Shown piece after piece: positions 7,551 through 48,953 of a DNA stretch of 64,000 nt. Within the stretch, counting starts at the first letter, position 1. Each line of letters starts with the position of its first letter. The notes under the pieces are model-generated. The model saw only the letters and a program-made list of their open reading frames with translations. It was not told the DNA's origin and did no database searches. The position numbers were made by a program, and so were the translations under genes. Source of the DNA: a virus; the IMG/VR virus record IMGVR_UViG_3300027861_000001, positions 1-64,000 of that record; one strand, written 5' to 3'.

Positions 7551-7579
7551 ATCTTATCATATGCCCAGTTAAATGTCAA
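7551..7579 (-). promoter_or_regulatory. sigma70-type promoter with spacer GGC
   Basis: TTGACA-tttaactgGGCataTGa-TAAGAT. Confidence 0.7.
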
Positions 7580-7776: not shown

Positions 7777-7805
7777 TTGACGATTTTCTAGGCGTTTGCT
7801 ATACT
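7777..7805 (+). promoter_or_regulatory. sigma70-type promoter with spacer GGC (divergent partner)
   Basis: TTGACG-attttctaGGCgttTGc-TATACT. Confidence 0.7.
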
Positions 7806-7872
7806 TAAATTGTAGGGACAGATTTTCAACAGAAAATAACCTGCCTGTATAATCTCAGGCAGAGGAAGTGAA

Positions 7873-8055
7873 ATGACAAAAGCTATATTTATGGTGATTG
7901 AAGCAAGGTGTAGAATCTGTGGCATCCCAATCATTTTAGATATAGAACCCCTCACCAGCCTATTTGAACATAAATCCTTTCCTTGGGCTATCTGTGAGGA
8001 CTGCCAGAACAGGGGTATAAATAGTGAAAAATCACTGAACAGCGCCGAACCCTAG
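7873..8055 (+). CDS. small zinc-ribbon protein
   Basis: CRIC...CEDC, GAGG RBS. Confidence 0.55.
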   Translation: MTKAIFMVIEARCRICGIPIILDIEPLTSLFEHKSFPWAICEDCQNRGINSEKSLNSAEP

Positions 8056-8079
8056 AGATTTTTTAATTAAGGAGATACT

Positions 8080-9225: not shown

Positions 9226-9622
9226 AGAAGACAAAGAAAAACTAAACCTAATTCATTATCAGGATCAAATAGATGGTTTAATACTAAGCGTAAAGTTTAA
9301 TATAGTGCCTGATCCACCAGACGAAGAAGTCATGAAAGAACTAATTAAACTTTGTGATAGTTTAAAGGAGGGAGAAATGGCATACACTAGAAAAGTCACC
9401 TTTACAAAAACAGGGCTGTATGGTTGCGGGTTGTACGATGAAGATGATGTTTACACAGTAGAGGAGTTTAAGGAGTTTTGTGGTGCAGGTGCATTCATTG
9501 ATTATGATGGATTCGGGCACCCTGTTAAAGATGGTTTTGCTGATGCTTGTATTAATATTAAACCATCTAGATTGAGTGCAATTCCTGAAGATGCTACACA
9601 CATTGTTTGGTATAATCGTTAG
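9215..9622 (+). CDS. hypothetical protein (possible internal start at 9377)
   Basis: ORF; strong AGGAGG before the in-frame ATG at 9377. Confidence 0.55.
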   Translation: MMDEEDKEKLNLIHYQDQIDGLILSVKFNIVPDPPDEEVMKELIKLCDSLKEGEMAYTRKVTFTKTGLYGCGLYDEDDVYTVEEFKEFCGAGAFIDYDGFGHPVKDGFADACINIKPSRLSAIPEDATHIVWYNR

Positions 9623-10623
9623 GAGGAATAAAATGGGCAAGGAAGAAATAGTACGTATACTCGTTGTTGGTGCAGTGGTTTGTGCTTTAGCTTTTGCCTG
9701 CTCAACTTGTATAATAAGTATGGACAACAACGAAACTGAGAAATACTTAGAAGAACTACGCCTTGAACACGAGTGTGAATAATGAAGTCAGATAAATATC
9801 ACCCAGACGGCAGCAGAAAAATTCCTGATGATATATTTAAGGCACCAGGACCTTTTGCGGCTATAGCTAACGATGAGTTTGACTTTGAAGATGTGTGGGC
9901 AGCTATTGTTATAGATATGCTTTGTGCATCTGAACTTCAAGAAGCTGAACTAGAAAATAATATACCGTTTCATGTCTTTTATTAAGGAGGCACATATGAA
10001 TTGTCCAACATGTGGTTGTAATGGAGAAAAACTACTGAAGGCTCTAAACTATGCTCTAAACTGTCTTGAAGTAATGGCACTGAACATGGATGGGGAAGCT
10101 AATGTGCTGGATCGTTGGAGAGAAGTTAGAGAAGCCAGAACAGACCTTGAACGTGAACACTATGGGGAGGAATAAGTTTGAACATAATTCTTGGGTTTTT
10201 AGTGCATGAACTTTTACATATGAAGTATAGAAAAATATGCCAAAAGGAGATAAAGACATGGGTTCTATGAAAAGACTAGCCGAAGATATAATGGAAGACC
10301 TAGATGCCATAGTTAAGAAGCACAAAATGACACCGATTGAGTTAATATCAGTGTTTGAGCTGTGGCAAGAGCATAACGAAGATGGGTGGGAAATGAAACT
10401 ACAATGGACTAATAAAACTTGTCCATGCAAATCTCCTGGCGGAATATGTGAGTATCCTCTAAACGGGCTTCCTTCTCACAGATTATGTAGGTTTGATACC
10501 TGCCCTGATGAAAGTAAAAAACTAATAGAGAAATAAGGAGGCAGAGCATGAACAAGAGAGATTCTGCTGGTGTATTTGTTTGCCTAGTAATCATCATTCT
10601 TCTAATTACTTAGGAGGTAGAAT

Positions 10624-18566: not shown

Positions 18567-19418
18567 ATGGGACATGGAACTTATTCATTCAACAGTCGGT
18601 CAGTCAGAGCGTCTACTATGGGATATAGTACAAAATCAACCCAAGAGCTTTTTCCACAACGTGATATAAATAGTGCTATGAGTCCTGATGGGGTCACTCT
18701 GCGTGAGGCTAGGGACTCAGACGACCATCCAGACTCATTTCCTATTGTTCTTGCGTTGGATGAAACTGGTTCAATGGGATCAATTCCTCACTTCTTGGTA
18801 AAAGAAGGCTTACCAAATATGATGGACAAAATCATCAAAAGTGGTGTGAACAGTCCTCAAATTCTTTTTCTGGGTATCGGAGATCATAAATGTGATAGGT
18901 CGCCGTTACAGGTAGGACAGTTTGAATCTTCGGATGACCTATTGGATAAGTGGCTTACTGATCTGTACCTTGAAGGTGGTGGTGGTGGAAATGCTGGTGA
19001 GAGTTACCATCTGGCATGGTTCTTTGCTGGTAGATACACCTTTACGGACAGCCTGGAGAAACGCGGGAAGAAGGGCGTGCTCATCACTATTGGTGACGAA
19101 CCTACTTTAAAGAGCATTTCGTCAAGCTCACTAAAATCTATTATGGGTGATGGTGAGTATTCCGACGTATCTGCTGCCGAGCTGTTGGATAGTGCTAGGG
19201 AGAAATATCACGTATTTCATCTGCACATGCTCCAAGGGCACAACGGTAACCGGCAAGACGTAAAGGACGGCTGGAAAGAATTAATGGGGGATGATGCAAT
19301 CTTTGTACAGCGTCGGGAAGATGTTGCAGATATTATAGCCGACATTGTTTCAAATGTAGCATTATCGACCAGCAACCAAACAACCAAAGTCAAAGCAACC
19401 ACAGAGGAAATGCTCTAG
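18567..19418 (+). CDS. VWA (MIDAS) domain protein
   Basis: LALDETGSMG, EGGGGGNAGESY, ITIGDE. Confidence 0.75.
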   Translation: MGHGTYSFNSRSVRASTMGYSTKSTQELFPQRDINSAMSPDGVTLREARDSDDHPDSFPIVLALDETGSMGSIPHFLVKEGLPNMMDKIIKSGVNSPQILFLGIGDHKCDRSPLQVGQFESSDDLLDKWLTDLYLEGGGGGNAGESYHLAWFFAGRYTFTDSLEKRGKKGVLITIGDEPTLKSISSSSLKSIMGDGEYSDVSAAELLDSAREKYHVFHLHMLQGHNGNRQDVKDGWKELMGDDAIFVQRREDVADIIADIVSNVALSTSNQTTKVKATTEEML

Positions 19419-20560
19419 TGAATACAGCAGTCGTTGGGCTTGGGTTCGGAGATGAGGGCAAGGGTGTAGTAACAGATTATCTCTGTTCTCTAAGCCCGCG
19501 TTCTGCTGTGCTAAGATTTTCTGGCGGACATCAAGCAGCACATACCGTATTTTATAACGGCACAAACCACGTATTCTCAAACTTTGGTTCAGGCACACTA
19601 CGAGGATGTGAGACATATTGGAGTGAATTTTGTACATTTGAACCTAGAGGGTTTTGTAACGAACTTAACATTCTAAGAAAAAAAGGTATTTCACCTATAC
19701 TACATATACATAATAATTGTATGGTGACTACACCCTACGATATAATAGCTAATTGGTTATCATCTGAGAGAGCACACGGCACAACCGGAGTAGGTATTTG
19801 GAAGACGATAGAGAGAAATAATAATAACTTTCATCTATCAGCCACACAAATACTTACACAAAATGAGAAAACAACGAAAGCACACATAAAAGAAGTAGCT
19901 AATTACTACAGTAATCTTCAACATGAAAATTTATCTGATATGCTAGAAGAATTTTACGATGCAGTTAAGCAAATTCAGAATGATGACAGTATACAACTGT
20001 TTTATAACTACCCACACGCAAATTCTATGGTGTTTGAAGGAAGTCAAGGATTGCTTTTGGATAAAGACATAGGATTCTGGCCTTATGTAACACCATCAAA
20101 GACTAATATGGAAAATGTATTTAAGTTGGGATATTCTCCAAGTGATGTATTTCTAGTTACTAGAGCATATCAAACTCGTCATGGCACTGGGCCTATGACA
20201 AACGAGGATAAACCTTTCCTCACACGTCAGGTTGAAGCTGCCACACAGGACAACGTATTTCAGGGAAAACTTCGTAAAACTATGCTTGATTTGGACTTAC
20301 TAGAAAAAGGGGTAAGGCTAGGAATTGACCCTGCGTGTGGACAGCGTGGAATAAAAAAGAATTTAGTAATCACATGCTTAGATCAAATAGATGAGTATAC
20401 TCTTACACACAACGAGACGGTACTGTCGTTTGATGGGGTTGGTGAGTTCATTAGTTATATTGGGGAAACTTTGGGAATAACGGGTGAGTTGTATGGTAAT
20501 TACAGTCCTTATTCTGATACGGTTAGTAAAGTGTTGGAGGTTATAGGATGCCAGACATAG
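19418..20560 (+). CDS. purA: adenylosuccinate synthetase-like protein (divergent)
   Basis: GLGFGDEGKG, GGHQAAHT, GTTGVG, FEGSQGLLLD...PYVT, YQTRHGTGP. Confidence 0.8.
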   Translation: MNTAVVGLGFGDEGKGVVTDYLCSLSPRSAVLRFSGGHQAAHTVFYNGTNHVFSNFGSGTLRGCETYWSEFCTFEPRGFCNELNILRKKGISPILHIHNNCMVTTPYDIIANWLSSERAHGTTGVGIWKTIERNNNNFHLSATQILTQNEKTTKAHIKEVANYYSNLQHENLSDMLEEFYDAVKQIQNDDSIQLFYNYPHANSMVFEGSQGLLLDKDIGFWPYVTPSKTNMENVFKLGYSPSDVFLVTRAYQTRHGTGPMTNEDKPFLTRQVEAATQDNVFQGKLRKTMLDLDLLEKGVRLGIDPACGQRGIKKNLVITCLDQIDEYTLTHNETVLSFDGVGEFISYIGETLGITGELYGNYSPYSDTVSKVLEVIGCQT

Positions 20561-26366: not shown

Positions 26367-26538
26367 TGGAGTGGATTAAGCGATTATTCTGTGGCCCTAA
26401 GTGTCCACAATGTAAAGAAAGGCAAGCGTTGCTAATACAAGAGGGGTTATTTCCAGCATATTATGAGTGCTTTAATTGTTTTACTAAGTGGTTCGTTCTT
26501 ACAGGTGAACGATTTTATTGGACGTTTGGAGGAAAATA

Positions 26539-27717
26539 GTGTTAACATTCAAAGGTAAATATAGTACCGCCATAGTAATGATTGACGAGATAGACGAAAC
26601 CACCGAAGAACAAATACGTACTTTCATCAATCATCCAGCCTTTGCGGGAACCTATATCGTAATCATGCCAGACTGTCATGCTGGTAAGGGTGCTGTGATA
26701 GGGTTTACTTCTACTTTGAATGACTACATAATTCCAAATGTTGTTGGGGTAGACATCGGTTGTGGTATGTTAGGTTATAAACTTAATGTATCAGAAATAG
26801 ATTTTGCAAAGTTAGATAAATTCATTAGGAAACAAATTCCAAGCGGTTTTAACATAAGACCTAGAACCCACAAACTTGTAGGAAATAATAAACCGTTGGT
26901 GGGTGAGATTACGGAGATAGTAGAAAAACTTGATTTAGTTCCAAGCAGAGTCTTTGATTCCCTTGGAAGCCTTGGTGGTGGAAATCATTTCATTGAGGTA
27001 GATAAAACAGAAGAAGGTGATTTGTGGTTGGTAGTTCATTCAGGTTCCAGAAACTTTGGGTTACAAATAGCTAACTATCACCAAAAGATAGCAAAGAATA
27101 ATTTGGTAGACAGAGACGTTAAAGATATGCTACGAGTCTTAAACTTGACAGAAGTAATAAAGGATGCTGAATTTCTTGAAAACTATGAGGCTGAAGAATA
27201 TTTGGAAGACATGAAGGTGGCACAGAAGTATGCTATCCTTAATAGAAAGATAATGATGCACGTTATGATTGAAGATTTCTTTGGGTTGAAATACGATGCT
27301 GGTAGAACGCTAGAAACAGTACATAACTATATAGACTTCTCTGCCGGTGTAGTAAGAAAAGGAGCTATATCAGCCCAGGAAGGTGAGCAACTTATTATAC
27401 CTTTCAACATGCAAGATGGTATCATCATAGGAACTGGAAAAGGTAATAGCGATTGGAACTACTCTGCTCCACACGGGGCTGGACGTATTTTATCAAGGAC
27501 ACAGGCAAAGAAACAACTTTCAGTGGACGATTTTAAAGAATCAATGAAAGGTGTTTGGACTTCTTGTGTATCAGAAAATACTCTTGATGAAGCTCCTATG
27601 GCATACAAAGACACGCAAGTAATCCTTAATGCTATAAAAGATACTGTTGACATAAATTTCTGGATGAAACCAACGTACAACTTTAAAGCAGATGAGGTAA
27701 AAAAATTCAAGAAATGA
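26539..27717 (+). CDS. rtcB: RtcB family RNA ligase
   Basis: MPDCHAGKG, VGVDIGCG, GGGNHF, HSGSR, HNY, SAPHGAGR, DEAPMAYK. Confidence 0.95.
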   Translation: MLTFKGKYSTAIVMIDEIDETTEEQIRTFINHPAFAGTYIVIMPDCHAGKGAVIGFTSTLNDYIIPNVVGVDIGCGMLGYKLNVSEIDFAKLDKFIRKQIPSGFNIRPRTHKLVGNNKPLVGEITEIVEKLDLVPSRVFDSLGSLGGGNHFIEVDKTEEGDLWLVVHSGSRNFGLQIANYHQKIAKNNLVDRDVKDMLRVLNLTEVIKDAEFLENYEAEEYLEDMKVAQKYAILNRKIMMHVMIEDFFGLKYDAGRTLETVHNYIDFSAGVVRKGAISAQEGEQLIIPFNMQDGIIIGTGKGNSDWNYSAPHGAGRILSRTQAKKQLSVDDFKESMKGVWTSCVSENTLDEAPMAYKDTQVILNAIKDTVDINFWMKPTYNFKADEVKKFKK

Positions 27718-29993: not shown

Positions 29994-30229
29994 GTAAACA
30001 GAAATTTAAAGTTGGTGATAGGGTTGTAGTGAACAGAAAATACCTTAATCCTAATCATAACAATTATATGATTGGTTGCAAAGAAATCACACACACCAAA
30101 AACTGTAAAGGGGAAAACAGAATTACGTATTTTGTTCTAGGTGTTTGGTTTTTCAGTTATCACCTTGATATGTGGACAGAAGATTCGTGTAGTTTTTGTC
30201 TTAAACGCTTTAAGTGTTGGACAAATTAA
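29990..30229 (+). CDS. CWT-family protein
   Basis: FKVGDRV; ends CSFCLKRFKCWTN. Confidence 0.8.
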   Translation: MSKQKFKVGDRVVVNRKYLNPNHNNYMIGCKEITHTKNCKGENRITYFVLGVWFFSYHLDMWTEDSCSFCLKRFKCWTN

Positions 30230-30487
30230 ATGAAAAGAAAGTTTAAACCAGGCAACATGGTTGTGTTCAGAGCAAAATATCCTAGCACTGAAAGCATGTA
30301 TTATTTTGTTGGGTGTGCCAAAGTTACTGATGTATGGAAAAACCTCGACGGAAGGGCTGTTTATTCGTTAGAGAGTGTATCAGGACTTCACAGATTTACG
30401 ATTGGTTATTATAGTTATGAATTAGATGAAGCACCAAAGGATAAATGTAATATCTGTGAAGTTAGATTCAAATGTTGGACAAGCTAA
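30230..30487 (+). CDS. CWT-family protein
   Basis: Ends CNICEVRFKCWTS. Confidence 0.8.
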   Translation: MKRKFKPGNMVVFRAKYPSTESMYYFVGCAKVTDVWKNLDGRAVYSLESVSGLHRFTIGYYSYELDEAPKDKCNICEVRFKCWTS

Positions 30488-30742
30488 ATGAAAAGAAAAT
30501 TTAACTTAGGAGATATGGCTCTCATAAGTCCTAAGTATATTAGGTATATTATTGATTGGAAATATTTCGAAGGATGTAGAAAGGTTACAAGAATTAAGAC
30601 AAAGGAGTCTGGATATACGAAGTATAGTATAGAAGTCATAGAACACGCTATTCACCGCGAATACTATAGTTGGGAACTGAATAAACCAACAAAAGAAGAT
30701 TGTAATAAGTGTAAAGAAAGATTTAAATGTTGGACTAGTTAA
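30488..30742 (+). CDS. CWT-family protein
   Basis: Ends CNKCKERFKCWTS. Confidence 0.8.
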   Translation: MKRKFNLGDMALISPKYIRYIIDWKYFEGCRKVTRIKTKESGYTKYSIEVIEHAIHREYYSWELNKPTKEDCNKCKERFKCWTS

Positions 30743-31051
30743 ATGGAAAGAAAATTTAAAGCTGGAGATAAGGTTAAAATATTTGATATAGGTGTTCTAC
30801 CTTATACATATGATTATATTGTAGGGCAAGTTGGTATAGTATCTGGGACAGGAAATGTTCTAGGGGTATCAGAGGTACTTGTTGGAGGTTTGAGCCTACA
30901 TGCAGGATTTAACGAAGATTCAAAGGGTATGATAGCTGGAGGTTGGGATATTTCTAGTGGTACTTTTTTATATATAAAGGAAGAAGGGTTAGAACTTTGC
31001 ACTGAGAAGTGTGAAACTTGTAACTTTAGATTTCGTTGTTGGACTAGTTAA
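30743..31051 (+). CDS. CWT-family protein
   Basis: Ends CTEKCETCNFRFRCWTS. Confidence 0.8.
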   Translation: MERKFKAGDKVKIFDIGVLPYTYDYIVGQVGIVSGTGNVLGVSEVLVGGLSLHAGFNEDSKGMIAGGWDISSGTFLYIKEEGLELCTEKCETCNFRFRCWTS

Positions 31052-31333
31052 ATGTCAGATGAATATATAAATTTTAGTTGTAGAGCCGAGTATCGTATTC
31101 CTATGAGTAATACTAGATGTTACTTAGTGAATGAGTGTATTAGAGAGGAAAGAGAAGCTTGTGGTGCAGTGTGGGCAGAGTATGATTTTTTGGAAGATAA
31201 AATTAATAGACTTTGGATGTATAACCCAAATGTTCAAACACGTATACTACAGCAATATAAAAGATACTGTAAAGAATTAGAAAAGGATAATTGTGATGAA
31301 TGTAAATTACGTTATCTTTGTTGGACTACCTGA
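31052..31333 (+). CDS. CWT-family protein
   Basis: Ends CDECKLRYLCWTT. Confidence 0.8.
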   Translation: MSDEYINFSCRAEYRIPMSNTRCYLVNECIREEREACGAVWAEYDFLEDKINRLWMYNPNVQTRILQQYKRYCKELEKDNCDECKLRYLCWTT

Positions 31334-31542
31334 TGAGTAAATTAAAAGTAGGAGACAAAGTTCGTTTAAAATATGCTTCTAATTTTTGGCAATATAAAGT
31401 AAGAACGATAACTAAAATTCTTAACGAGTTAGATGAACCATACTTTCTCAACCATTCGTTTATAGGGTGGGCAGAAGAAGAATTGGTACTGTGTAAAGAC
31501 TGTGATCAATGTGAAGAAAGATTTCGTTGTTGGACAAATTAA
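31333..31542 (+). CDS. CWT-family protein
   Basis: LKVGDKV; ends CDQCEERFRCWTN. Confidence 0.8.
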   Translation: MSKLKVGDKVRLKYASNFWQYKVRTITKILNELDEPYFLNHSFIGWAEEELVLCKDCDQCEERFRCWTN

Positions 31543-31911
31543 ATGGATATGAGAAAAGAAGAAAAGTTTGCTATACTTTGTACATTTGCATATGGTGGTT
31601 ATTTTTTTTATATAATAAATACTCCACTTAGCCATGTAATGATACGTAGAGTTGAACATAATTACTCGAACGTTGCAAAATTTGAAAACAGTAGCTATCC
31701 ACGCGAACAAATTGATCGTACATGGGAAAAGTTTGTAGAGTGGCGTGATAATGGTAAACAAAACATACCAATACAATGTAAAGGTTGTGAAAATATATTT
31801 AAATGTTTAACTTTCTACGGACAAGGAATTTCTCTGGCACTAAATAGAGATATTCCATTTAGTATTAAAGAATCTGTAGTAGGAGAAGATAGTGAGTGGT
31901 TACTTAAATAA
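31543..31911 (+). CDS. CWT-family protein (internal, degenerate motif)
   Basis: CKGCENIFKCLTF; resembles 49245-49520. Confidence 0.6.
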   Translation: MDMRKEEKFAILCTFAYGGYFFYIINTPLSHVMIRRVEHNYSNVAKFENSSYPREQIDRTWEKFVEWRDNGKQNIPIQCKGCENIFKCLTFYGQGISLALNRDIPFSIKESVVGEDSEWLLK

Positions 31912-33229
31912 AATAGCAGATGATTTTAATAAGGCTGGGTATGAGATATACGAGGTTGGTGGTATGGTAAGAGATTCTATTTTAGGTAGACCTTCCAACG
32001 ACATTGACCTATGTACAGACGCAGTACCAGAAGAAACTATTAGGTTATTAAAACCATTTGGTTCTGTCTATACTATAGGCAGGAAGTTTGGTACTGTGGG
32101 AGTGTTGTTGGCTGATGAAACAAAAGTAGAAGTAACAACCTACAGAACAGAAACCTATAGCAAAGACTCTAGGAAACCAGAAACTGTTTTCGAAAAGAGC
32201 TTGATTAAGGATTTATGTAGGAGGGACTTCACCATAAACGCCATAGCACGTGACATAAAAACTGGTGAATTGATTGATCCTCGTAATGGAAAGAGAGACA
32301 TAGGAAATAAAATTATAAGATGTACTCAACACAGAGATACGACATTTAGTGACGATCCTCTTAGAATGATGCGTGCTGTGAGGTTTGAGGCACAACTTCC
32401 TGGTTTCAGTTTTGTAGAAAAAATAGATAACCCAGAAAGGTTAGAGATTGTGTCAATGGAAAGAATCAGGGAAGAATTAGATAAAATAATGAAAACTGAC
32501 GAACCACACAGAGGAATTAGGAGGTTATGTTCTTTAGGGCTTATGAAGTATATAATACCTGAGTTGTTAGAATTGAAAACGATACCCCACGGAAAGCATC
32601 ATTTCAAAGACCCATTTGATCATACAATGTTAGTTTTACAAAAAGGGGCTGTTGTTTCAAACGAATTATCATTTAGATATGCTTGTTTATTTCATGATAT
32701 TGCTAAACCAGACACCATAAGTATGGATGAAACTGGGGTGCATTTCAATAACCATAACATTGTAGGTGCAGGTAAAGCAAAAACAATCATGAAACGGCTC
32801 AGGTTCGACAAAAAGACTATTACAACCGTCAGAACTTTGGTTAACCATCATATGGAACCTTTACACTCACAAAAACTATTAGAAGACGCAACTGATAAGC
32901 GTAAAGATTATTTGGTGGGTAGAATGGTGCGTAGGATTGGAAGGGAAAACATATATGACTTAATCAATTTGGTTAGGTGTGATATTCGTTCATCCAAAAA
33001 TCCAAAGCTTGATTTCTTAGATATCTTAGAAGAGGCAGTAAATAATCACTTTATTGTGGTTCCAGTTGTTAAGTCTCCTTTAAGCGGTAATGAAATTATG
33101 GACTATTTAAACATAAAACCTAGCCAAGAGGTTGGTAGATTAAAGAGTATCTTAGTTCAAAAGGTAATTGACGGGGAGCTAGGGTTTGATGATAAGGAAG
33201 CTGCCAAGAAACTTATCAAGGAATTGTGA
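31892..33229 (+). CDS. cca: CCA-adding tRNA nucleotidyltransferase with HD domain
   Basis: VGGMVRD..DIDL, RRDFTINA, DDPLRMMRAVRF, ERIREE, HDIAKP. Confidence 0.9.
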   Translation: MSGYLNKIADDFNKAGYEIYEVGGMVRDSILGRPSNDIDLCTDAVPEETIRLLKPFGSVYTIGRKFGTVGVLLADETKVEVTTYRTETYSKDSRKPETVFEKSLIKDLCRRDFTINAIARDIKTGELIDPRNGKRDIGNKIIRCTQHRDTTFSDDPLRMMRAVRFEAQLPGFSFVEKIDNPERLEIVSMERIREELDKIMKTDEPHRGIRRLCSLGLMKYIIPELLELKTIPHGKHHFKDPFDHTMLVLQKGAVVSNELSFRYACLFHDIAKPDTISMDETGVHFNNHNIVGAGKAKTIMKRLRFDKKTITTVRTLVNHHMEPLHSQKLLEDATDKRKDYLVGRMVRRIGRENIYDLINLVRCDIRSSKNPKLDFLDILEEAVNNHFIVVPVVKSPLSGNEIMDYLNIKPSQEVGRLKSILVQKVIDGELGFDDKEAAKKLIKEL

Positions 33230-33501
33230 TGATAGACAAAGACCTACCAGCGTATGAACACTTCCTTATATGGTCAGAAAAGTATAAAATGGCACTCCAC
33301 TACCGATGTAATACTTGTGGAACAGTTTGTACATACGAATGGGTAGATAACGTTAAGCAAGATAGAACACCATGCCCTGTTTGCAAAGATTCACAGATTC
33401 CAACTTCTTCTCTTTGGGTAACAGCCTGTACTTTAGATGAGGAATTTCCAGTAGATGTTTGTGAGAAATGTGAACTTAGGTTTGTTTGTTGGACAGGATG
33501 A
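33226..33501 (+). CDS. CWT-family protein (Zn ribbon + tag)
   Basis: Ends CEKCELRFVCWTG. Confidence 0.8.
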   Translation: MMIDKDLPAYEHFLIWSEKYKMALHYRCNTCGTVCTYEWVDNVKQDRTPCPVCKDSQIPTSSLWVTACTLDEEFPVDVCEKCELRFVCWTG

Positions 33502-33752
33502 TGAAGCATAAAAACAGGTGTATAAGAATCACGCAAATTAAATATAGTACTCCATTTTGCTTGGCTGATGACAATGTCAAGAAGCATTTCTCACACTGCG
33601 TAGGAAGAAAGGGAAAGATAGTTGGTGGGACAGATGATTGGGTAAACATCGAGTTCTTAGACACCGGTGGTAAATTTCACTTTCATCCAGACGAGATTGA
33701 GTTATTTCCTTGTGAAGAATGTGAAAAAAGATTTAAATGCTGGACAACTTAA
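33498..33752 (+). CDS. CWT-family protein ('QIKY' subgroup)
   Basis: Ends CEECEKRFKCWTT. Confidence 0.8.
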   Translation: MMKHKNRCIRITQIKYSTPFCLADDNVKKHFSHCVGRKGKIVGGTDDWVNIEFLDTGGKFHFHPDEIELFPCEECEKRFKCWTT

Positions 33753-34019
33753 ATGAAACAACCTAAAGATGGGCAACGGGTAATTATTACACAGATTAAA
33801 TACGGTTCTGTGGATATTCTTGCCAACGACAGTACAAAAACTAACCATGCTGATTTCGTGGGAAAAGTAGGAATAATACATCGGGAAGCTGGTGATAAAG
33901 ATTGGTATTTGGTACAACTACCGTCTGGAAGTTGGAACCGCTTTCATCCAGAAGAATTTGTGTTATGTACAGAGAAGTGTAATGAGTGCAAAGCTAGATT
34001 TGTTTGTTGGACAGGGTGA
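33753..34019 (+). CDS. CWT-family protein ('QIKY' subgroup)
   Basis: Ends CNECKARFVCWTG. Confidence 0.8.
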   Translation: MKQPKDGQRVIITQIKYGSVDILANDSTKTNHADFVGKVGIIHREAGDKDWYLVQLPSGSWNRFHPEEFVLCTEKCNECKARFVCWTG

Positions 34020-34291
34020 TGAAAAAAATAAAGGTGGGAGATAGGGTTAGACTTAAAAAGATACACAAGGGGTATCTTCCAGCCAACCTTGATGTAGAGT
34101 TTGCGTGGGAACGATGTTATATCGTATCTGAGGTATTTTTTAGACCATTAATAGGTTCTAAAACAGGGAACTATGTAACACTTATAAAGTTTAAAAGTTA
34201 CAACACCGGTGCGAGCAAAGCCAATCATTTTTCTCACACTAAAAAGACTTGTGAAAAGTGTAAATATAGATTTAAATGCTGGACTGAATGA
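34019..34291 (+). CDS. CWT-family protein
   Basis: Ends CEKCKYRFKCWTE. Confidence 0.8.
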   Translation: MKKIKVGDRVRLKKIHKGYLPANLDVEFAWERCYIVSEVFFRPLIGSKTGNYVTLIKFKSYNTGASKANHFSHTKKTCEKCKYRFKCWTE

Positions 34292-34545
34292 TGAATAGAA
34301 AATTTAAAATTGGAGATTTTTCTACAGTAAATAGAGTCGGATGCTACCCAAATGAGTTGGGGCGTATTGTACGGATTACAAGAAGCTGGAATGACAATAT
34401 TCTATATGAAGTAAAAATATGTGCTAGAGTTAAGAATGGTTTTATTTATGATAAAAAACTACATCCTGCAAGAAGGTTGTGTAAAGTAGACAACCCACCA
34501 AAATGTGAAGAATGTGAAAAAAGATTTAAATGCTGGACTACGTGA
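34288..34545 (+). CDS. CWT-family protein
   Basis: Ends CEECEKRFKCWTT. Confidence 0.8.
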   Translation: MMNRKFKIGDFSTVNRVGCYPNELGRIVRITRSWNDNILYEVKICARVKNGFIYDKKLHPARRLCKVDNPPKCEECEKRFKCWTT

Positions 34546-34793
34546 TGCTAAAAGAAGGTGATAAAGTATTTATAACAGGTATGGATGATTGGTGTGATTG
34601 TGTAGACTGCGTGGAAACATACTGGCAAGATGTACACAACAAACAAGCAACTGTAGTAATGTCGGTAATAAACGCACCAACTCTTGTCTTTACTACAAGC
34701 GATGGTATTAGATTTAGCATTAAAGACGTAACTTATGACGTTTGTGAGAAATGCGATGAATGCAAACATCGTTTCATATGTTGGACTAGTTGA
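34545..34793 (+). CDS. CWT-family protein, paralog of 57453-57704
   Basis: KVFITG..DWCDC..C; ends CDECKHRFICWTS. Confidence 0.8.
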   Translation: MLKEGDKVFITGMDDWCDCVDCVETYWQDVHNKQATVVMSVINAPTLVFTTSDGIRFSIKDVTYDVCEKCDECKHRFICWTS

Positions 34794-35084
34794 ATGATAA
34801 AAAAAAGAATTAAAAAAGGAAGCTGTGTAATAGTAACACAAATACTGTATGGTTCATATGGAGTAAAAGCGTCTGACAGAATACTCCAAGACTACGCTCA
34901 ATACGTAGGAAAAGTGGCAACAGTTGAGGCATCAGATGTTGAAAAAGATGGTTTTTCAATTAAACATACACTAAAATTCAAATCTTTCGACGAAATAGTA
35001 GGAGGATTTTTTGTAGAGGAGCTTGAGGAGCTGGAAAAACCATGTGAAGAGTGCCCTGCAAGATTTCAATGTTGGACTAGTTAA
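34794..35084 (+). CDS. CWT-family protein ('QIKY' subgroup)
   Basis: Ends CEECPARFQCWTS. Confidence 0.8.
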   Translation: MIKKRIKKGSCVIVTQILYGSYGVKASDRILQDYAQYVGKVATVEASDVEKDGFSIKHTLKFKSFDEIVGGFFVEELEELEKPCEECPARFQCWTS

Positions 35085-35333
35085 ATGTTTTACGAGTTGG
35101 ATGAAATAGTAGATTCACTTGGTAAAACTAAATACTCGTCATGCTTAGTTATAAAGTATTGGTATTCTATAGTAGATTACAAAGAATATGTATTAGTCAA
35201 AAGAGGTTGCGAGGAATGTGAAGAACGTTTTAAATGTTTTACATCGAACACAAACATTCCACCACGAACAACACTAATGTCTAGAAATAGATTTAGTTTA
35301 TATAATACTTGGGTAATAGAAAGGGAGGATTAA
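35085..35333 (+). CDS. CWT-family protein (internal motif)
   Basis: CEECEERFKCFTS. Confidence 0.7.
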   Translation: MFYELDEIVDSLGKTKYSSCLVIKYWYSIVDYKEYVLVKRGCEECEERFKCFTSNTNIPPRTTLMSRNRFSLYNTWVIERED

Positions 35334-42821: not shown

Positions 42822-43151
42822 ATGAAAATTCGTAAAGGTTTTGTCAGTAATAGTAGTAGCACAAGTTTCTGTATCTTTGGAGCCTGTGTCAAGGAAGGTT
42901 GGGGAGAAAGTTTAGTAACTTTGAGTGCTGAGGAAATTGAAGATAGGTTACAAAATACTACCTTAAGATATGCAACTGGTGAGTCAGATGAAATTTATGT
43001 TGGGTTAAATTGGCATGATATGGACGACAACGAAACCAAACAAGACTTCATGCGACGAATAAGAAAGCTAATCTTGGACGCATTTCCAGAAATAACTGAC
43101 CAAGAATCCTTAAAAGTATATATGGAAGTGCAGGGGTGGTATGACGGATGA
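42822..43151 (+). CDS. GFVSNSS-leader family protein 1
   Basis: MKIRKGFVSNSSSTSF. Confidence 0.8.
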   Translation: MKIRKGFVSNSSSTSFCIFGACVKEGWGESLVTLSAEEIEDRLQNTTLRYATGESDEIYVGLNWHDMDDNETKQDFMRRIRKLILDAFPEITDQESLKVYMEVQGWYDG

Positions 43152-43711
43152 AAATAAGAAATGGTTTTGTGTCTAACAGTTCTACAGCTAGCTTTATTGT
43201 TTTAATAAAACCTAAAAGAATTAAAGATGTAGAGTTTGTTTTGCGGTATGCAACAGGTGAGTATCCTGTATGTAAAACTGTGTCTAAAAGAAAGAAAGAA
43301 TTAAATAAAGAAATAAGTAAGCTGGACGAAGATATACTTTACGTTAAGGAAAAATACAAGGAACTAGATTCGCTTTATAGTGAGAATGCTTTTGATTTTC
43401 ATGAGTTGTGCCATGACATATCAAACATAAATAATTATAGAAAATCTATATTCGCTATTAGGACAATGAGAGAGCATCCATCAAAAATTAAGCTAAAAAG
43501 AACTTTCTACCACGACAAACTCAAAAATGTAATTGAAAACATTAAGGAAGCAAAGGTTGATTGCCAAAATGAGTTGAAAAGTCTAACTGGTAATGAAACT
43601 TGGAGTATTGTTAGTTTTCAAGATGATGCCAATTTCGGTAGAATGCAAGGAATGGTAGACGAGTTAGTTAAAGATGGAGACGCTATAATTATTTTGGAGG
43701 AAAGAACATGA
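43148..43711 (+). CDS. GFVSNSS-leader family protein 2
   Basis: MKIRNGFVSNSSTASF. Confidence 0.8.
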   Translation: MKIRNGFVSNSSTASFIVLIKPKRIKDVEFVLRYATGEYPVCKTVSKRKKELNKEISKLDEDILYVKEKYKELDSLYSENAFDFHELCHDISNINNYRKSIFAIRTMREHPSKIKLKRTFYHDKLKNVIENIKEAKVDCQNELKSLTGNETWSIVSFQDDANFGRMQGMVDELVKDGDAIIILEERT

Positions 43712-44250
43712 AAACTAGAACAGGGTTTGTATCAAACAGTTCCAGTAGCTCTTTCGTAGTTTTATTTCCAAAAGTTCCAAAAACTGTTGAAGATGTTAAG
43801 AAGATGGTTTTTTCGAAAGATGAATCATTCTACCCTCGTCCATCTGGTTCAGACTTAAAAACGTGGAGAATAAACAAAGAATATTGGGAAGTTGAGGAAG
43901 TTGCCAAAACAATATTCAGTGATATACAAGAGCAGGAAGTAAATAATAAAGAAGCCATGCTTAATGAGGTGGATGGTGGTGTAAATCCAGATGATTTTAG
44001 GTCTGGTGTAGCAACCACTTATGAGAGAGGAGACGGAACTTCTTACACAATAAATGAGATAGATTGGAAAGCGTATTATAAAGCTGAACACAAACAAAGC
44101 AAGAGAATATTAGAGGCATTTTTAAAGAATAATACAGAAACGGCAGGTTATGTGTTTGAGTATTCAGACAACGATAGTGGTTATTCCAGTGCATTAGAAC
44201 ACGATGGTTTGTTTGAAAATCTTCCACACATCAAAACCAGTAAACACTAA
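43708..44250 (+). CDS. GFVSNSS-leader family protein 3
   Basis: MKTRTGFVSNSSSSSF. Confidence 0.8.
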   Translation: MKTRTGFVSNSSSSSFVVLFPKVPKTVEDVKKMVFSKDESFYPRPSGSDLKTWRINKEYWEVEEVAKTIFSDIQEQEVNNKEAMLNEVDGGVNPDDFRSGVATTYERGDGTSYTINEIDWKAYYKAEHKQSKRILEAFLKNNTETAGYVFEYSDNDSGYSSALEHDGLFENLPHIKTSKH

Positions 44251-44264
44251 AAAGGAGAAAGTAA

Positions 44265-44588
44265 ATGAAAGTAAGGCAGGGATTCGTAAGCAATAGTTCA
44301 AGTAGCTCGTTCATAGTGTTGGTAAAAGATGAAACCATGTCGGCAGAAGAGCGAAGAGAAAAAAACATAGCAATATACAGAGAAGAATATGGAGAAGACT
44401 TCGACGAAGTTGCAGAGGATGGTTACATAAACAAGTGGTTAGCTGGGTACGAGAAAGAACACCAATATATTCTTCTAAAACAAAGTGTTGAGTATGGCGG
44501 AGAAGACTCGGTGACCGCTATAGTAACTGCTTTGTTAGATAAGCTAGGAGTTGCTACAGAAAATATAACGTTTGCGTGGGATGAGTAA
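44265..44588 (+). CDS. GFVSNSS-leader family protein 4
   Basis: MKVRQGFVSNSSSSSF. Confidence 0.8.
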   Translation: MKVRQGFVSNSSSSSFIVLVKDETMSAEERREKNIAIYREEYGEDFDEVAEDGYINKWLAGYEKEHQYILLKQSVEYGGEDSVTAIVTALLDKLGVATENITFAWDE

Positions 44589-44589
44589 C

Positions 44590-44847
44590 ATGAAAATTAG
44601 AACAGGTTTTGTATCAAACAGTAGCAGTAGTAGTTTTGTTCTAACAAAAATGAATTTGTCACAACAACAACTTCAAAAAATTAGTGAGAAGATACGTTTA
44701 TTTGAAGGTGCGAGTAGTGATATGTACATTTATAATGGAAAAAGATTTTTTCACGGTGAGATGTCAATGCATGACATCGAAGCATTTGAAAATTTTCTTG
44801 TGAATCAACTAGGGGTTAGTGAGGAAGATTTCGAATTTAATCAGTAG
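44590..44847 (+). CDS. GFVSNSS-leader family protein 5
   Basis: MKIRTGFVSNSSSSSF (start refined to 44590). Confidence 0.8.
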   Translation: MKIRTGFVSNSSSSSFVLTKMNLSQQQLQKISEKIRLFEGASSDMYIYNGKRFFHGEMSMHDIEAFENFLVNQLGVSEEDFEFNQ

Positions 44848-44856
44848 GAGAACGAA

Positions 44857-45183
44857 ATGAAAATAAGACAAGGATTTGTGTCCAATAGTTCTAGTTCGTC
44901 TTTTATAGTTCTGAAAGAGAACTTGAATAATTGGCAGCTTAAACAACTGTATGAACATATGTCTGTTGGGAAAACATTGGGAGTGTATATTCCTTATAGA
45001 CCAATAGATAAACCATTCACAGATGACGATAGAATGTATGAAGGTATGGACGCTTGGAGCATAAATGAAGAAGTTAAAGACGACGGTAATACTTACATAA
45101 CAGGATATACTTCTATGAATAATTTTCCAATGGAGGATTTCTTAAAGAAAATTGGTGTTAAGGGTGTACTTTGGGATTACTAA
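44857..45183 (+). CDS. GFVSNSS-leader family protein 6
   Basis: MKIRQGFVSNSSSSSF. Confidence 0.8.
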   Translation: MKIRQGFVSNSSSSSFIVLKENLNNWQLKQLYEHMSVGKTLGVYIPYRPIDKPFTDDDRMYEGMDAWSINEEVKDDGNTYITGYTSMNNFPMEDFLKKIGVKGVLWDY

Positions 45184-45198
45184 AAAAGGAGTAAAATA

Positions 45199-45558
45199 AT
45201 GAAAATAAGAAAAGGTTTTGTGAGTAATAGTAGCTCAACTTCGTTCTGTGTTTATGGTGATATTATCGAAGAAAGTGAATTAAAAGATATCTTTTCAAAA
45301 CTTGTAGATACGTGGAGTGATGAGGATGATTTGTATGCAATTTGTGAAGATTTGGAACTTGTGTTTCAAGACACGGGAATAGAAGTTATAGCCGGAGAAG
45401 ACTGTCTAGTGATTGGTAGAGGTTATGACACGCTACGCGACAACGAAACTGGGGCAGAATTCAAAACCTCCGTAGAGACAGCTTTAAAGGCAAAGCTTGG
45501 AGATGAAGCTGTAGGTAAAATGCACCTCAGTTATAACGAGGGAGAAATTTATAGTTAA
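45199..45558 (+). CDS. GFVSNSS-leader family protein 7
   Basis: MKIRKGFVSNSSSTSF; full-length similarity to member 1 (DNET..F). Confidence 0.8.
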   Translation: MKIRKGFVSNSSSTSFCVYGDIIEESELKDIFSKLVDTWSDEDDLYAICEDLELVFQDTGIEVIAGEDCLVIGRGYDTLRDNETGAEFKTSVETALKAKLGDEAVGKMHLSYNEGEIYS

Positions 45559-45569
45559 AGGAGTAAGTC

Positions 45570-46589
45570 GTGGGAACAAAAACAGTTAAGTCACCAGAGT
45601 ATAATTATATCTTTAATGACGAAACAGGGTTCTTTTTAAGGTGGGGAAAGTCTCTAGAGGACGACCCACTTTACTCACCATACGGCCCAGAGATACTAGA
45701 TATAGAAATATCAACAATTTGCTCTCATGGGTGTTCGTTCTGTTATAAAACAAACAAGAGTGAAGGAATTAATATGACTTATGAAACCTTTACTAGTATG
45801 TTTGAAAAGTTCCCAAGTAACTTGACTCAGATTGCCTTTGGAATTGGGGATATTGACGGGAATCCAGACTTATATGATATTATGGATTATTGCAACCTAA
45901 AAAAAGTAATCCCCAACATTACTATCAACGGTACTAGGATGACTCCTGGGCATTATGACTCTCTATCACAGTTGTGTGGAGCAGTAGCAGTAAGTCTCTA
46001 TGATTATGACACCTGTTATAACGCTGTTAAGGAATTGACAGATCGAGGAATGAAACAAGTAAACATTCACTGTCTCTTGGCTGTTGAGACTTTGGAAAAA
46101 TGTTACCAAGTACTTAAAGATGTAAAAACTGATGAAAGACTGAGTGGTCTTAACGCTGTAGTGTTTTTAATTTTGAAACCAAAAGGAGAAAGAAACCACT
46201 TCACACAAGTAAAAGATAAAGAAGAATTTAAACGTCTTATTGATTTTGCTTTAAAGGCCGAAGTTGGTTTTGGATTTGATTCATGTACTGCTTCAAGTTT
46301 TCTAGAGGCAGTTAGCACAGAACCTAACTATGATACGTATAATTTGTTGTCTGAACCATGTGAATCTACTTTATTTTCATACTACATTAACGTTGAAGGT
46401 AAAGGATTTCCTTGCAGTTTCACCGAATCAGTTTCACCGTACAACGGTATTGACATCTTGAAAGTGGAAGACTTTATGCTTGAGGTGTGGAACCATGAAG
46501 AAACTTTATCTTTTAGAAATAAAGTATTAAGCAATCTTGATTGTAGAGGATGCAGAATGTGTCCTCAATATGATTTACAAATGGTATAA
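45570..46589 (+). CDS. radical SAM protein with SPASM/twitch-like C-terminal domain
   Basis: CSHGCSFC; PCES..YYINVEG..FPCSF...W...CRGCRMCP. Confidence 0.85.
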   Translation: MGTKTVKSPEYNYIFNDETGFFLRWGKSLEDDPLYSPYGPEILDIEISTICSHGCSFCYKTNKSEGINMTYETFTSMFEKFPSNLTQIAFGIGDIDGNPDLYDIMDYCNLKKVIPNITINGTRMTPGHYDSLSQLCGAVAVSLYDYDTCYNAVKELTDRGMKQVNIHCLLAVETLEKCYQVLKDVKTDERLSGLNAVVFLILKPKGERNHFTQVKDKEEFKRLIDFALKAEVGFGFDSCTASSFLEAVSTEPNYDTYNLLSEPCESTLFSYYINVEGKGFPCSFTESVSPYNGIDILKVEDFMLEVWNHEETLSFRNKVLSNLDCRGCRMCPQYDLQMV

Positions 46590-46606: not shown

Positions 46607-48079
46607 GTGAAAGCAGTTGTAAGAGAAGGTGTCGCACAAGGTAGCTACAGAGGTGGTGCTTACTATAACTATGATATGGTAAGAATACAGGGCAAAACTA
46701 TCGAAGTATCTACAATCAAAAACAGTGAATATGATTATATAACTATACCAAACGGAACTGACGAGCGTAGTTGGAGTTGGTTGAGAGAATGGCTTGTAAT
46801 CAACTCTGCCGGAGAGGTGCGAGAGGCAAGAGTAAGGTTACTAAAAGCTTTTGATGATGTTGATGTTAATACACCTGTTGTACTAGACATTTATACAGCT
46901 TTGAGGCTTGGTGTAGGTAAAGATCAAATGGTTGGGTTCAGTGTTGAAAGGGAAGGTAGGATTGCTTACGCCAGTAAACCTGAACACTTGTACGACATTA
47001 CAAAAAGACAACGAAGCTCACTACAGAGATATATACGTAGACAATTGAAATTTGGCACATCTCGTATCAAAGATCATGAGTTGGATTTACTTTGTCGTCA
47101 AGTTGTAAAAGTGTGTTATGACGGACAATTTACACTATTAAAAGGTGTTGCTATAGCAGATGCATACGAACGTCACGCTGGGTGCGACTCATGTATGACA
47201 GGTGATAGAACTTTAGTAGAAATGTACGCTATTAATAGTAATATTGAACTGGCTCTGTATCAATTCAACGGACGAGAAGCAAGGGCACTGTTGTGGACTT
47301 GTGATGACGGTATGAAAGTTCTTGATCGTATATATCCAAATGATGGTGGTCATATTGAAATTATGAAGGCGTGGGCAGCGGAGAATGGGTGGATATACAG
47401 AGTTAGTAACTCATTACCTGAAGACGATACTATAGAGTTATCAGATCGTAGTTTAAGGTATATAACTGTTAAACCTACACAAAATATACCATATTTGGAT
47501 ACTTTTTACCACGGAGAAGGAGTCAACGGTGGTATGATGGTATTGTCAAATGACGAAGATCATGGTCATTTTGTAGGTGACGGAGAGGGTGGATATACAT
47601 GTGAGTTTTGTGGCGCATATGTTAACCCAGATGATTGTTTTTGTGATAATGATGACTATATATGTGATTCTTGTCAAGATGAGTATTATGTACTATGTGA
47701 CAGATGTGATGAGTATGTTAATATTGAGAGTAGCCGAGCTACTGTAGAGGTAGATAATGAGATAATATGTCGTGACTGTCGCTCTGAATTAGATATAGTA
47801 GAGTGCTATCACTGTGGTTCTTTCACGCTCGATTATGTTGAAGTAGACAATAAGTATAATTATTGTGAATGTTGTGCTGATATTTATGCTGATGAGTGTG
47901 ATAAGTGTGGTAACCTTACAACTAATATAAAGGTTACTAATGATGATAGTTCTATCTGTCCTGATTGTTGGGACGAAAAGGCATACATATGTGATGGGTG
48001 TGGTAGTTTATTCGACGTAGATAATACAGAAGGAGGTTACTGTGTGGAATGTCAGTCAACCAGAAAAGAAACCATATAA
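46607..48079 (+). CDS. hypothetical protein with a C-terminal array of CxxC zinc-ribbon repeats
   Basis: SCM...RALLW...DRIYP core, then about ten CxxC pairs. Confidence 0.75.
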   Translation: MKAVVREGVAQGSYRGGAYYNYDMVRIQGKTIEVSTIKNSEYDYITIPNGTDERSWSWLREWLVINSAGEVREARVRLLKAFDDVDVNTPVVLDIYTALRLGVGKDQMVGFSVEREGRIAYASKPEHLYDITKRQRSSLQRYIRRQLKFGTSRIKDHELDLLCRQVVKVCYDGQFTLLKGVAIADAYERHAGCDSCMTGDRTLVEMYAINSNIELALYQFNGREARALLWTCDDGMKVLDRIYPNDGGHIEIMKAWAAENGWIYRVSNSLPEDDTIELSDRSLRYITVKPTQNIPYLDTFYHGEGVNGGMMVLSNDEDHGHFVGDGEGGYTCEFCGAYVNPDDCFCDNDDYICDSCQDEYYVLCDRCDEYVNIESSRATVEVDNEIICRDCRSELDIVECYHCGSFTLDYVEVDNKYNYCECCADIYADECDKCGNLTTNIKVTNDDSSICPDCWDEKAYICDGCGSLFDVDNTEGGYCVECQSTRKETI

Positions 48080-48953
48080 AAAAAACTTACCAGAGGTTAT
48101 GAGGGCAACGTCTTTAAAAAACCTATCGTGGTACTGTCATGCAGACATACCAACGTTGTTTAACGCTACAGGTGGAAACCATAACGACGAGTATGCGTTC
48201 AAAGATAACGGAAGTAAGATTCTAGCTGTTGCTCATTGTGACGTATCAAGAATCATAGAAAAGCAACGTCATTTTAGCGTAGCCAAACTTACAACTGATA
48301 CACTTATATACTCAACTTATTTAGATGATAGATTAGGTGTATACACAATACTTGAAGTGTTACCAAGGCTTGGTATTAATGTTGATGTTTTATTGACCAC
48401 AGACGAGGAAATAGCTAAGTCTACAGCTACGTTGTTTACACCTAAAAAAGAATACAATTGGATGGTAGAGTTTGATAGAAGGGGTGATGATGCCGTAACG
48501 TATCAATACGATTGGGAAGATATTATAGGAGATTATTTCCAAGTTGGTACTGGCACATTCTCTGATTTGAATGATTTAGACCATGTTGGTGTATGTGGAG
48601 TAAACGTTGGAGTAGGTTACCAAGATGAACATTCACCTTTTTGCTATATGTCAGTTGCGGAATATAGGCACCAACTAGCAAGGTTTGTGTCGTTCTGGGA
48701 TTACGAAAAAGATAATAGGTACGAACACTTTGAACAAGCCAGTCCAACTTTGTTAAATGATATCCCTTCAGTTGATATAACAGACGATGGGTGTGTTACG
48801 TGTCCTAGGTGTGCATCTCACTTTAATGTTGCAGACCTATACGAATGGCATAAATGGTTGTGTTGTCCTATGTGTGGTGAAGATATTGTAGAAACGAAAG
48901 AACACCTAGGCAACAGGGTTATAGATGATTGGGATGAGATATGGGAGCTCTGA
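48042..48953 (+). CDS. M28/M20-like zinc peptidase-fold protein with C-terminal zinc ribbon
   Basis: AHCD, DDRLG, TDEE, EFDR, FSD, GYQDEH. Confidence 0.75.
   Translation: MWNVSQPEKKPYKKNLPEVMRATSLKNLSWYCHADIPTLFNATGGNHNDEYAFKDNGSKILAVAHCDVSRIIEKQRHFSVAKLTTDTLIYSTYLDDRLGVYTILEVLPRLGINVDVLLTTDEEIAKSTATLFTPKKEYNWMVEFDRRGDDAVTYQYDWEDIIGDYFQVGTGTFSDLNDLDHVGVCGVNVGVGYQDEHSPFCYMSVAEYRHQLARFVSFWDYEKDNRYEHFEQASPTLLNDIPSVDITDDGCVTCPRCASHFNVADLYEWHKWLCCPMCGEDIVETKEHLGNRVIDDWDEIWEL

Follow-up and report, generated by a model that had tools for sequence, protein, structure and literature searches.

Seven closely packed tandem genes on the + strand (42822-45558) of a 64-kb stretch of viral DNA (positions 1 to 64,000 of IMG/VR record IMGVR_UViG_3300027861_000001, here called the window) encode proteins of 85-187 amino acids (aa) that all begin MKxRxGFVSNSS(S/T)xSF, and a gene for a radical S-adenosylmethionine (SAM) enzyme starts 11 nt after the last of them. 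Our findings that this N-terminal tag and homologs of this enzyme occur together in phages, whichever of the two is taken as the anchor, and again as a sister form in bacteria, make us confident that enzyme and tagged proteins work together. As to what they do together, we lean towards a model, drawn from sequence comparison, that sees the tag as a substrate which the enzyme modifies. The pair would then represent a two-part phage module, composed of a twitch/SPASM-type radical SAM enzyme and a set of small, mostly acidic tagged proteins (seven in the window phage, up to 14 per array in other phages), and it is probably an undescribed protein-modification system. A preliminary description of the window had already seen the seven open reading frames (ORFs) with their near-constant N-terminus and the radical SAM gene at the distance given above, both of which we find as described, and had proposed that one maturase serves a diversified set of substrates. 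Of this proposal, the functional pairing is borne out by co-occurrence while the chemical modification of the tag is something we infer.

In IMG/VR, 495 stretches contain a match to the exact pattern of the tag. Loci anchored on the tag have an enzyme homolog within 10 kb in about 48 of 76 cases, mostly as the immediate neighbour of 2-14 tag genes in tandem, and the unbiased reverse test, anchored on the enzyme, finds at least one tag gene within the same distance in 71 of 80 loci; the neighbourhood co-occurrence that had earlier been suggested as a check is thus strong in both directions. Among the tag-bearing records without a nearby enzyme, all of those at least 90% complete (4/4) have the enzyme elsewhere and the records without it are fragments; four of the five enzyme-bearing records without a nearby tag likewise have tag genes elsewhere. 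The pair is found in phage lineages that are unrelated to each other and have genomes of 50-550 kb, and the enzyme is present in 173 phage isolate genomes, mostly T4-like Slopekviruses of Klebsiella, Enterobacter and Cronobacter. Both parts are carried, for example, by Klebsiella phage KP15 (enzyme gene KP15_135, two tag genes near record positions 70373-70885 and 66926) and by Vibrio phage D479 (five tag genes within 2-11 kb of the enzyme). In 190 related loci none of the window genes flanking the pair is kept with it and neither a protease nor an exporter is conserved, and the module therefore seems to consist of just the enzyme and the tagged proteins. Two individual loci deserve to be recorded alongside these counts. 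One is a 531-kb ENA contig (L010), probably from a jumbo phage, which has seven tag genes in 6 kb (4908-10534) and no enzyme within 10 kb. The other is Klebsiella phage Kpn35c1 (OK631813.1, 138099-139110), where the enzyme gene is split into two tblastn pieces, a natural knockout; at this very site, a GIY-YIG homing endonuclease has been reported in a published comparison (PMC9960720).

A logo built from 395 distinct copies of the tag reads M-K-[IVT]-R-x-G-F-V-S-N-S-S-[ST]-[ST]-S-F, with two or three hydrophobic residues behind it, and in these copies it starts at residue 1 without exception. Its Ser codons are a mixture of AGY and TCN, as the preliminary description had noted for the window and as now holds across the 395 copies, and selection therefore acts on the protein. 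Proteobacterial cassettes (see below) carry the form MK[IVL]K[LFMI]DFVSNSSSTSF, in which K stands for R4 and, in 116 of 119 proteins, D for G6, and in which FVSNSSSTSF is retained despite both replacements. It follows that the tag can do without R4 and G6 and that its universal core narrows to FVSNSSS(S/T)SF. The replacement of G6 also rules out a glycyl-radical reading of this residue, for which the RVxG(Y/F) fingerprint is lacking in any case since the spacing of R4-x-G6-F7 is wrong. The core is, moreover, far more constant than the enzyme: in bacterial cassettes, the partners of enzymes with 28-31% identity to that of the window still begin MKIRxGFVSNSSSTSF. Such constancy of the tag core next to an enzyme that has drifted to 28% identity is better explained by a constraint of chemistry than by a docking surface that evolves along with its partner.

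According to structure models, the tag lies outside the folded part of the proteins that carry it. In the AlphaFold2 (AF2) model of window protein 3 (predicted local distance difference test, pLDDT, 83) residues 1-10 average 53 and the first core strand spans residues 13-20, and in the model of window protein 1 (pLDDT 76) residues 1-15 are below 50 and the first strand is formed by residues 18-22. As modelled, the tag is a flexible N-terminal overhang which leads into the first strand and is not the core of a fold. Being unstructured yet invariant, it would therefore be constrained by something outside the protein. This bears on an objection which the preliminary description had raised against itself, namely that the motif is merely the first strand of a shared fold: residues 1-12 form a low-confidence overhang in both models and most of the protein bodies behind the tag are unrelated at profile level, so the objection does not hold. 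Neither the 395 copies nor the alignment of the window proteins revealed a conserved cleavage motif between tag and first strand.

The sister form of the module, which the preliminary description had missed, came from a scan for the tag in one genome per prokaryotic species, which returned two kinds of hits: low-GC contigs with arrays, which are probably phage DNA binned into metagenome-assembled genomes (MAGs), and single tag genes on high-GC chromosomal contigs. Single tag genes directly followed by the enzyme (28-31% identity, as above) were found in Acidobacteriota, Verrucomicrobiota, Bryobacterales and Terriglobales. They form part of an operon of four genes (Table 1), a cassette that is also present on plasmid pAt of Agrobacterium tumefaciens Ach5 and in Proteus mirabilis, where it adjoins an insertion sequence (IS) element, and relatives of the cassette's tagged protein occur in Brucella, Rhizobium, Photobacterium, Methylomonas and others. 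In the enzyme tree, the cassette enzymes group together as a single clade with a support of 1.0, and a long branch sets this clade off from every one of the 108 phage-type enzymes. Because the enzyme-tag pair sits here with an Avs2-like nucleoside triphosphatase (NTPase) of the STAND (signal transduction ATPases with numerous domains) type, and because the bodies of the tagged proteins are small, acidic and effector-like, the module probably has its role in the conflict between phage and host, and the arrays of the phages probably provide early host-takeover or anti-defence effectors. The second, untagged protein of the cassette shows weak similarity to its tagged partner over 35 columns immediately behind the tag (hhalign 80%; the proteins compared are given in Table 1), and its N-terminus in Verrucomicrobiota, MIYxTASNAxL, has the look of a tag in decay.

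The enzyme belongs to the radical SAM superfamily by its match to PF04055 (Radical_SAM; 1.1e-8, 35.9 bits vs a cut-off of 29.5 bits), and its CX3CX2C SAM-cluster motif (C51/C55/C58) is invariant in 42 as well as in 116 homologs. It has more than 3000 relatives and matches phrog_7293 at 2.6e-88; this family, like phrog_7397 to which tagged protein 3 belongs, is a phage family of unknown function. Its C-terminal domain had been described as a SPASM/twitch-type tail, and here our data separate the two terms. Only C239, C264, C282 and C331 are universal in this domain among the 116 homologs (phage and bacterial forms alike), which is enough for one auxiliary cluster. The seven-Cys SPASM motif (PF13186/TIGR04085), by contrast, is defined as CX9-15GX4C, gap, CX2CX5CX3C, gap, C and binds two auxiliary clusters; its CX2CX5CX3C element is absent, and the SPASM Pfam match of the window enzyme (19.4 bits) stays under the 21.5-bit cut-off, with 27.9 bits reached by the Agrobacterium homolog. 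From its sequence, then, the domain appears twitch-like with a single predicted auxiliary cluster, which fits a match to NF033640 (1.3e-4), and it is the twitch half of the earlier assignment that stands. Among named maturase models of NCBIfam none comes near its cut-off, the best being TIGR04317 (27.9 bits vs 380), and the matches cover the core or the twitch part only.

In the mechanism we propose, the tag would be the site at which the enzyme both recognises and modifies its partners. The enzyme would thread the exposed N-terminal tail of each tagged protein into its barrel and abstract an H atom from a residue in the hydroxyl-rich core, and the covalent change left behind would serve to arm or activate effector bodies of various kinds. 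In favour of such a substrate role we count that hydroxyl residues follow one another in the core of the tag and that the tail which bears them is exposed. For the chemistry, a first guess by analogy with anaerobic sulfatase-maturating enzyme (anSME) and BtrN would be oxidation of a Ser/Thr side chain to a carbonyl, a guess that we hold to be doubtful; alternatively, a cross-link or an epimerisation may be envisaged. Bolder still, and in our opinion unlikely, is a scenario in which the same new protein-arming chemistry operates on both sides of the conflict between phages and immunity of the NLR type (nucleotide-binding, with leucine-rich repeats): a residue of FVSNSSS would be turned into a reactive or cross-linked group, the modified tail would gate or trigger the Avs2-like STAND sensor in bacteria, and phages, having acquired a copy of the pair, would have attached the tag to small acidic effectors, dozens of them and unrelated to each other, to obtain enzyme-activated anti-defence or host-takeover proteins.

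Several observations weigh against modification of the tag by the enzyme or sit uneasily with it. The tag genes of KP15-like phages lie about 20 kb from the enzyme, and co-transcription is therefore not required. Pfam detected no recognition element (RRE/PqqD) for ribosomally synthesised and post-translationally modified peptides (RiPPs) in the enzyme, which has about 45 residues before the core, and natural fusions of enzyme and tag are absent from the enzyme ORFs inspected (0/120). BtrN, a twitch-domain dehydrogenase, is the sole PDB sequence match of the enzyme, but at E 2e-4 and over the radical SAM core only, so that the dehydrogenase analogy is weak. In the tagged proteins themselves, residues 13-20 of the tag region make the first beta-strand of the protein 3 body in its AF2 model, and part of the conservation could therefore be structural. 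The protein 3 family (phrog_7397), in addition, keeps D154, E164 and H180 invariant besides the tag and H165 nearly so (pattern YSDNDG...ALEHG...H), a set of residues which may point to a separate metal or catalytic site in this family and could mean that the tag contributes to the active site of protein 3.

The genomic coupling which supports our model would look identical if the tag were a docking peptide, rather than a substrate, and the tagged proteins were interchangeable adaptors, specificity subunits or regulators that steer the enzyme to protein, RNA or DNA targets in the host. Bodies that are diverse, with each family nonetheless conserved across phages, are what one would expect of such target-recognition modules, and the small accessory protein of the KpAvs2 system does bind its partner stably (PMC11564622). 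A pure interface, however, normally co-evolves with its partner, which is hard to reconcile with a tag core that is invariant next to an enzyme drifting to 28% identity, and five or six hydroxyl residues would be an unusual binding epitope while they are a natural substrate for H-atom abstraction. So to our minds docking has a small, though real, chance of being correct. An improbable scenario is that the motif is a fold or active-site element (first strand plus a Ser-rich, ligand-binding loop) shared by one diverged family of paralogs and that the enzyme is a mere neighbour. It can draw on the first strand of the protein 3 model and on the D/E/H/H set of its family, as well as on remote relationships among some body clusters (1-9, 5-14-15, 4-13) and on a strand-then-Asp pattern that recurs in many bodies. 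But residues 1-12 are a low-confidence overhang in both models, most cluster pairs are without profile similarity, lengths vary from 77 to 491 aa, and the near-obligate co-occurrence with the enzyme in phages and bacterial cassettes would be left unexplained.

Conserved residues in a carrier peptide are also the material from which SPASM and twitch enzymes make pyrroloquinoline quinone (PQQ) and mycofactocin. By this precedent, the tag could be the product itself, modified and cut off as a small RiPP-like molecule or cofactor, with the bodies as disposable scaffolds; a conserved tag in front of a variable rest, the reverse of the usual leader/core logic, may be seen to favour this. Yet a protease, an exporter or a further tailoring enzyme is not conserved beside the pair, the bodies belong to conserved families and are confidently predicted to fold, and the tag continues straight into the first strand where a conserved cleavage motif is missing, all of which renders a released product quite improbable. 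In T4 internal-protein loci, a constant N-terminal leader precedes variable bodies, and in form the tag array resembles them. A sorting signal unrelated to the enzyme, such as a capsid-targeting sequence of this kind, would also suit small and acidic proteins, as many injected anti-restriction proteins are. We find it hardly credible, however, given that the tag is present in chromosomal and plasmid-borne cassettes of bacteria, which have no capsid, always beside the enzyme, and that it co-occurs with the enzyme across unrelated phage lineages.

The window (Table 1) is part of a complete 149-kb virus record with direct terminal repeats, and the rest of this genome holds no further copies of the tag beyond the seven. 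A listing of sequencing runs places the stretch in one seawater metagenome DNA run only, its probable source, and has no RNA run for it. For a back-translated degenerate DNA pattern of GFVSNSS the window gives 7 matches vs 0.02 expected (100 shuffles). Aligned with each other, the seven proteins are invariant at M1, K2, R4, G6, F7, V8, S9, N10, S11, S12, S15 and F16, with identity of just 21-32% past the tag. By BLAST only proteins 1 and 7 align throughout, as had been reported; this has to be amended for the more sensitive profile comparison, which relates proteins 5 and 6 remotely (hhalign 91.5%). The bodies had further been called mostly acidic, and indeed six of the seven proteins have isoelectric points (pI) of 4.2-5.2, protein 2 being the basic one. 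While phrog_7397 covers protein 3 over its full length, the other six are matched via the tag only. A GGAG-type ribosome-binding site precedes every one of the seven genes; a scan for promoters and terminators gave no difference from shuffles. For protein 5, the position of the tag sets the start at ATG 44590, where a mechanical ORF caller chose the upstream TTG 44572. Among isolate phages, neither tblastn with protein 3 nor a nucleotide search with the array region produced a match.

Table 1. Genes of the tagged array and enzyme in the window, general layout of the four-gene bacterial cassette, and untagged cassette proteins that were compared (L numbers denote individual cassette loci).
Feature	Position	Strand	Description
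Tagged protein 1	42822..43151	+	109 aa, pI 4.6; paralog of protein 7; body cluster 0, the commonest body family (87 members in 73 loci)
Tagged protein 2	43148..43711	+	187 aa, pI 8.6; sole basic member; rare body family (cluster 18, 4 members); phrog_7397 match over residues 1-45 only
Tagged protein 3	43708..44250	+	180 aa; full-length phrog_7397 member (1.7e-11); body cluster 2, 25 members
Tagged protein 4	44265..44588	+	107 aa, pI 4.5; body nearly orphan (cluster 33, 2 members)
Tagged protein 5	44590..44847	+	85 aa; body cluster 9, 8 members; remotely related to protein 6
Tagged protein 6	44857..45183	+	108 aa, pI 5.0; body cluster 1, 28 members in 26 loci
Tagged protein 7	45199..45558	+	119 aa, pI 4.2; paralog of protein 1; body cluster 0
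Radical SAM enzyme	45570..46589	+	339 aa; PF04055 and phrog_7293 matches
Cassette gene 1			880-960 aa; SMEK_N domain plus NACHT/Avs2-like NTPase; PADLOC Avs2 1.8e-23
Cassette gene 2			about 125 aa; untagged protein
Cassette gene 3			about 135 aa; tagged protein
Cassette gene 4			radical SAM enzyme
Untagged cassette protein	L104:9612-9998
Untagged cassette protein	L096:9612-10004
Untagged cassette protein	L193:6273-6638
Untagged cassette protein	L194:6640-7017

Taking residue 21 onward as the body, BLAST sorted the bodies of the tagged proteins into 119 clusters, and hhalign found most pairs of clusters unrelated, with few links including clusters 1-9 (proteins 6 and 5 of the window), 5-14-15 and 4-13. 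The tagged proteins are 77-491 aa long and 82% of the bodies have a pI < 5. Pfam identified no domain above noise in representatives of the 119 clusters, with two marginal single matches. For the models of proteins 3 and 1, Foldseek found no PDB match (E up to 0.001) and VIA-align no PDB fold match (best Z 2.6 and 4.8, respectively); the ESM Atlas returned only unnamed viral or bacterial clusters. An Asp column seemingly conserved across all bodies was considered and set aside, since in acidic proteins it is mostly a product of the alignment; a strand with Asp behind it does recur all the same.

A second motif in the window, C-x-x-C-x-x-[RK]-[FYW]-x-C-[WFY]-T (CWT), is found in 41 ORFs on both strands between 10888 and 62710 (for example at 25208, 30188-31501, 33460-35208, 40182, 41941 and 49476), mostly one or two residues before the stop codon. 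The tag system had been said to mirror this CWT system, a parallel which turns out to be formal only. CWT occurs in 8 of 195 related loci (84 motifs), all from the closest relatives of the window phage, and is therefore a lineage-specific expansion independent of the enzyme; its confinement to these relatives also led us to reject it as a second substrate of the enzyme. Directly downstream of the enzyme (46607-48079, +) lies a gene for a 490-aa protein with many CxxC pairs, which is zinc-ribbon-like (DZR_2 0.0067) and has no homolog in related loci, and this is followed by one for a 303-aa protein (48042-48953, +) of the phage peptidase family phrog_4191 (5.6e-12) with a C-terminal CxxC...CxxC, which is not conserved with the module. 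Elsewhere in the window, a 380-aa protein (19418-20560, +) matches phrog_1211 (5.9e-52), an adenylosuccinate-synthetase-like family with a PurZ-type annotation; judging by this gene, the window phage might replace adenine by 2-aminoadenine in its DNA. An RtcB tRNA ligase (26518-27717, +; 3.9e-132) and a CCA-adding tRNA nucleotidyltransferase (31892-33229, +; 3.6e-73) together make a set for tRNA repair within the same block of early-type genes.

To our knowledge, radical SAM enzymes that modify whole proteins are few and include sulfatase maturases, glycyl-radical activases and a handful of others. In the papers that we searched we found none described for phage effector sets, nor did we find a description of the tag or of a phage radical SAM enzyme with tagged proteins, and the string FVSNSS gave unrelated papers only. 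The present analysis is new in counting co-occurrence from the side of the enzyme too, in extending the overhang to a second body family, in defining the four-Cys pattern of the enzyme, in narrowing the essential core through the G6 to D variant and in finding the module independent of CWT. The isolates which carry the enzyme include therapy-relevant Klebsiella Slopekviruses, and the tag is also found in immune-type cassettes of cultivable Proteus mirabilis, Agrobacterium and Photobacterium. Solving its chemistry could yield a new post-translational modification and assign function to a large block of phage 'dark matter' genes, and a 16-residue tag recognised by one enzyme on unrelated proteins could serve as a handle for protein engineering.

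How does this module compare to known systems? anSME converts Ser or Cys to formylglycine in sulfatases, has (C/S)xPxR as its target motif and contains two auxiliary clusters. With anSME and BtrN, the window enzyme shares a radical SAM core and a Cys-ligated auxiliary cluster in a SPASM/twitch domain, and anSME acts on a protein-borne hydroxyl residue where the tag offers a run of Ser and Thr; the tag, however, lacks (C/S)xPxR, and the window enzyme has one predicted auxiliary cluster vs two in anSME. RiPP systems in which one maturase serves many precursors are alike in combining a single enzyme with tandem genes that share a short invariant sequence and differ elsewhere. Here, in contrast, the sequence that does not vary remains attached to folded proteins of 85-190 aa, where it passes into the first strand, and the variable parts are conserved protein families rather than hypervariable cores. 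Because the tag stays on folded proteins, and because an RRE, a protease and an exporter are not conserved, the module is not a classical RiPP system. Closer to the conflict setting are the STAND-linked systems of FxsA/FxsB (Kaur et al. 2020, eLife, PMC7159879), which consist of an FxSxx-COOH peptide and a radical SAM/SPASM enzyme. They resemble our module in type of enzyme, in the STAND link and in a terminal F-x-S motif (F7-V8-S9 in the tag), but their motif is C-terminal where the tag is N-terminal, they have a processing metallopeptidase which is absent here, and the FxsB model does not match the window enzyme at E up to 1.

Of the systems described so far, the KpAvs2 operon of Klebsiella pneumoniae (Bechon et al. 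2024, Nat Commun, PMC11564622) comes closest; its NTPase needs the small Avap2 (DUF6375-like by HHpred) and, for some phages, the radical SAM protein Avap1; the role of Avap1 is unknown and no viperin-type products were found (PMC11564622). A survey of STAND proteins (Nature 2026) does not mention radical SAM partners. Using hmmscan at E up to 10, we obtained no match of PF19902 (DUF6375) to any tagged or untagged small protein, the HHpred comparison of the published study being more sensitive, so that a remote relationship may exist, and PF19902 is also absent from the precomputed Pfam annotation of the Proteus cassette. A search for it in five cassette genomes plus 401 genomes of the class of one MAG brought no match, with control genomes equally silent, and no Klebsiella plasmid was matched when we looked for an Avap1 relative. 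In terms of layout, the cassettes have a SMEK_N effector and four genes where KpAvs2 has an Mrr nuclease and three, and the phage module differs further by the lack of a STAND gene and by its many tagged proteins. Still, judged from the published description rather than from Avap sequences, the cassettes likewise combine an Avs2-like NTPase with small proteins and a radical SAM enzyme, and solving the chemistry of the tag could explain the as yet unexplained radical SAM partner of Avs2-type defence systems.

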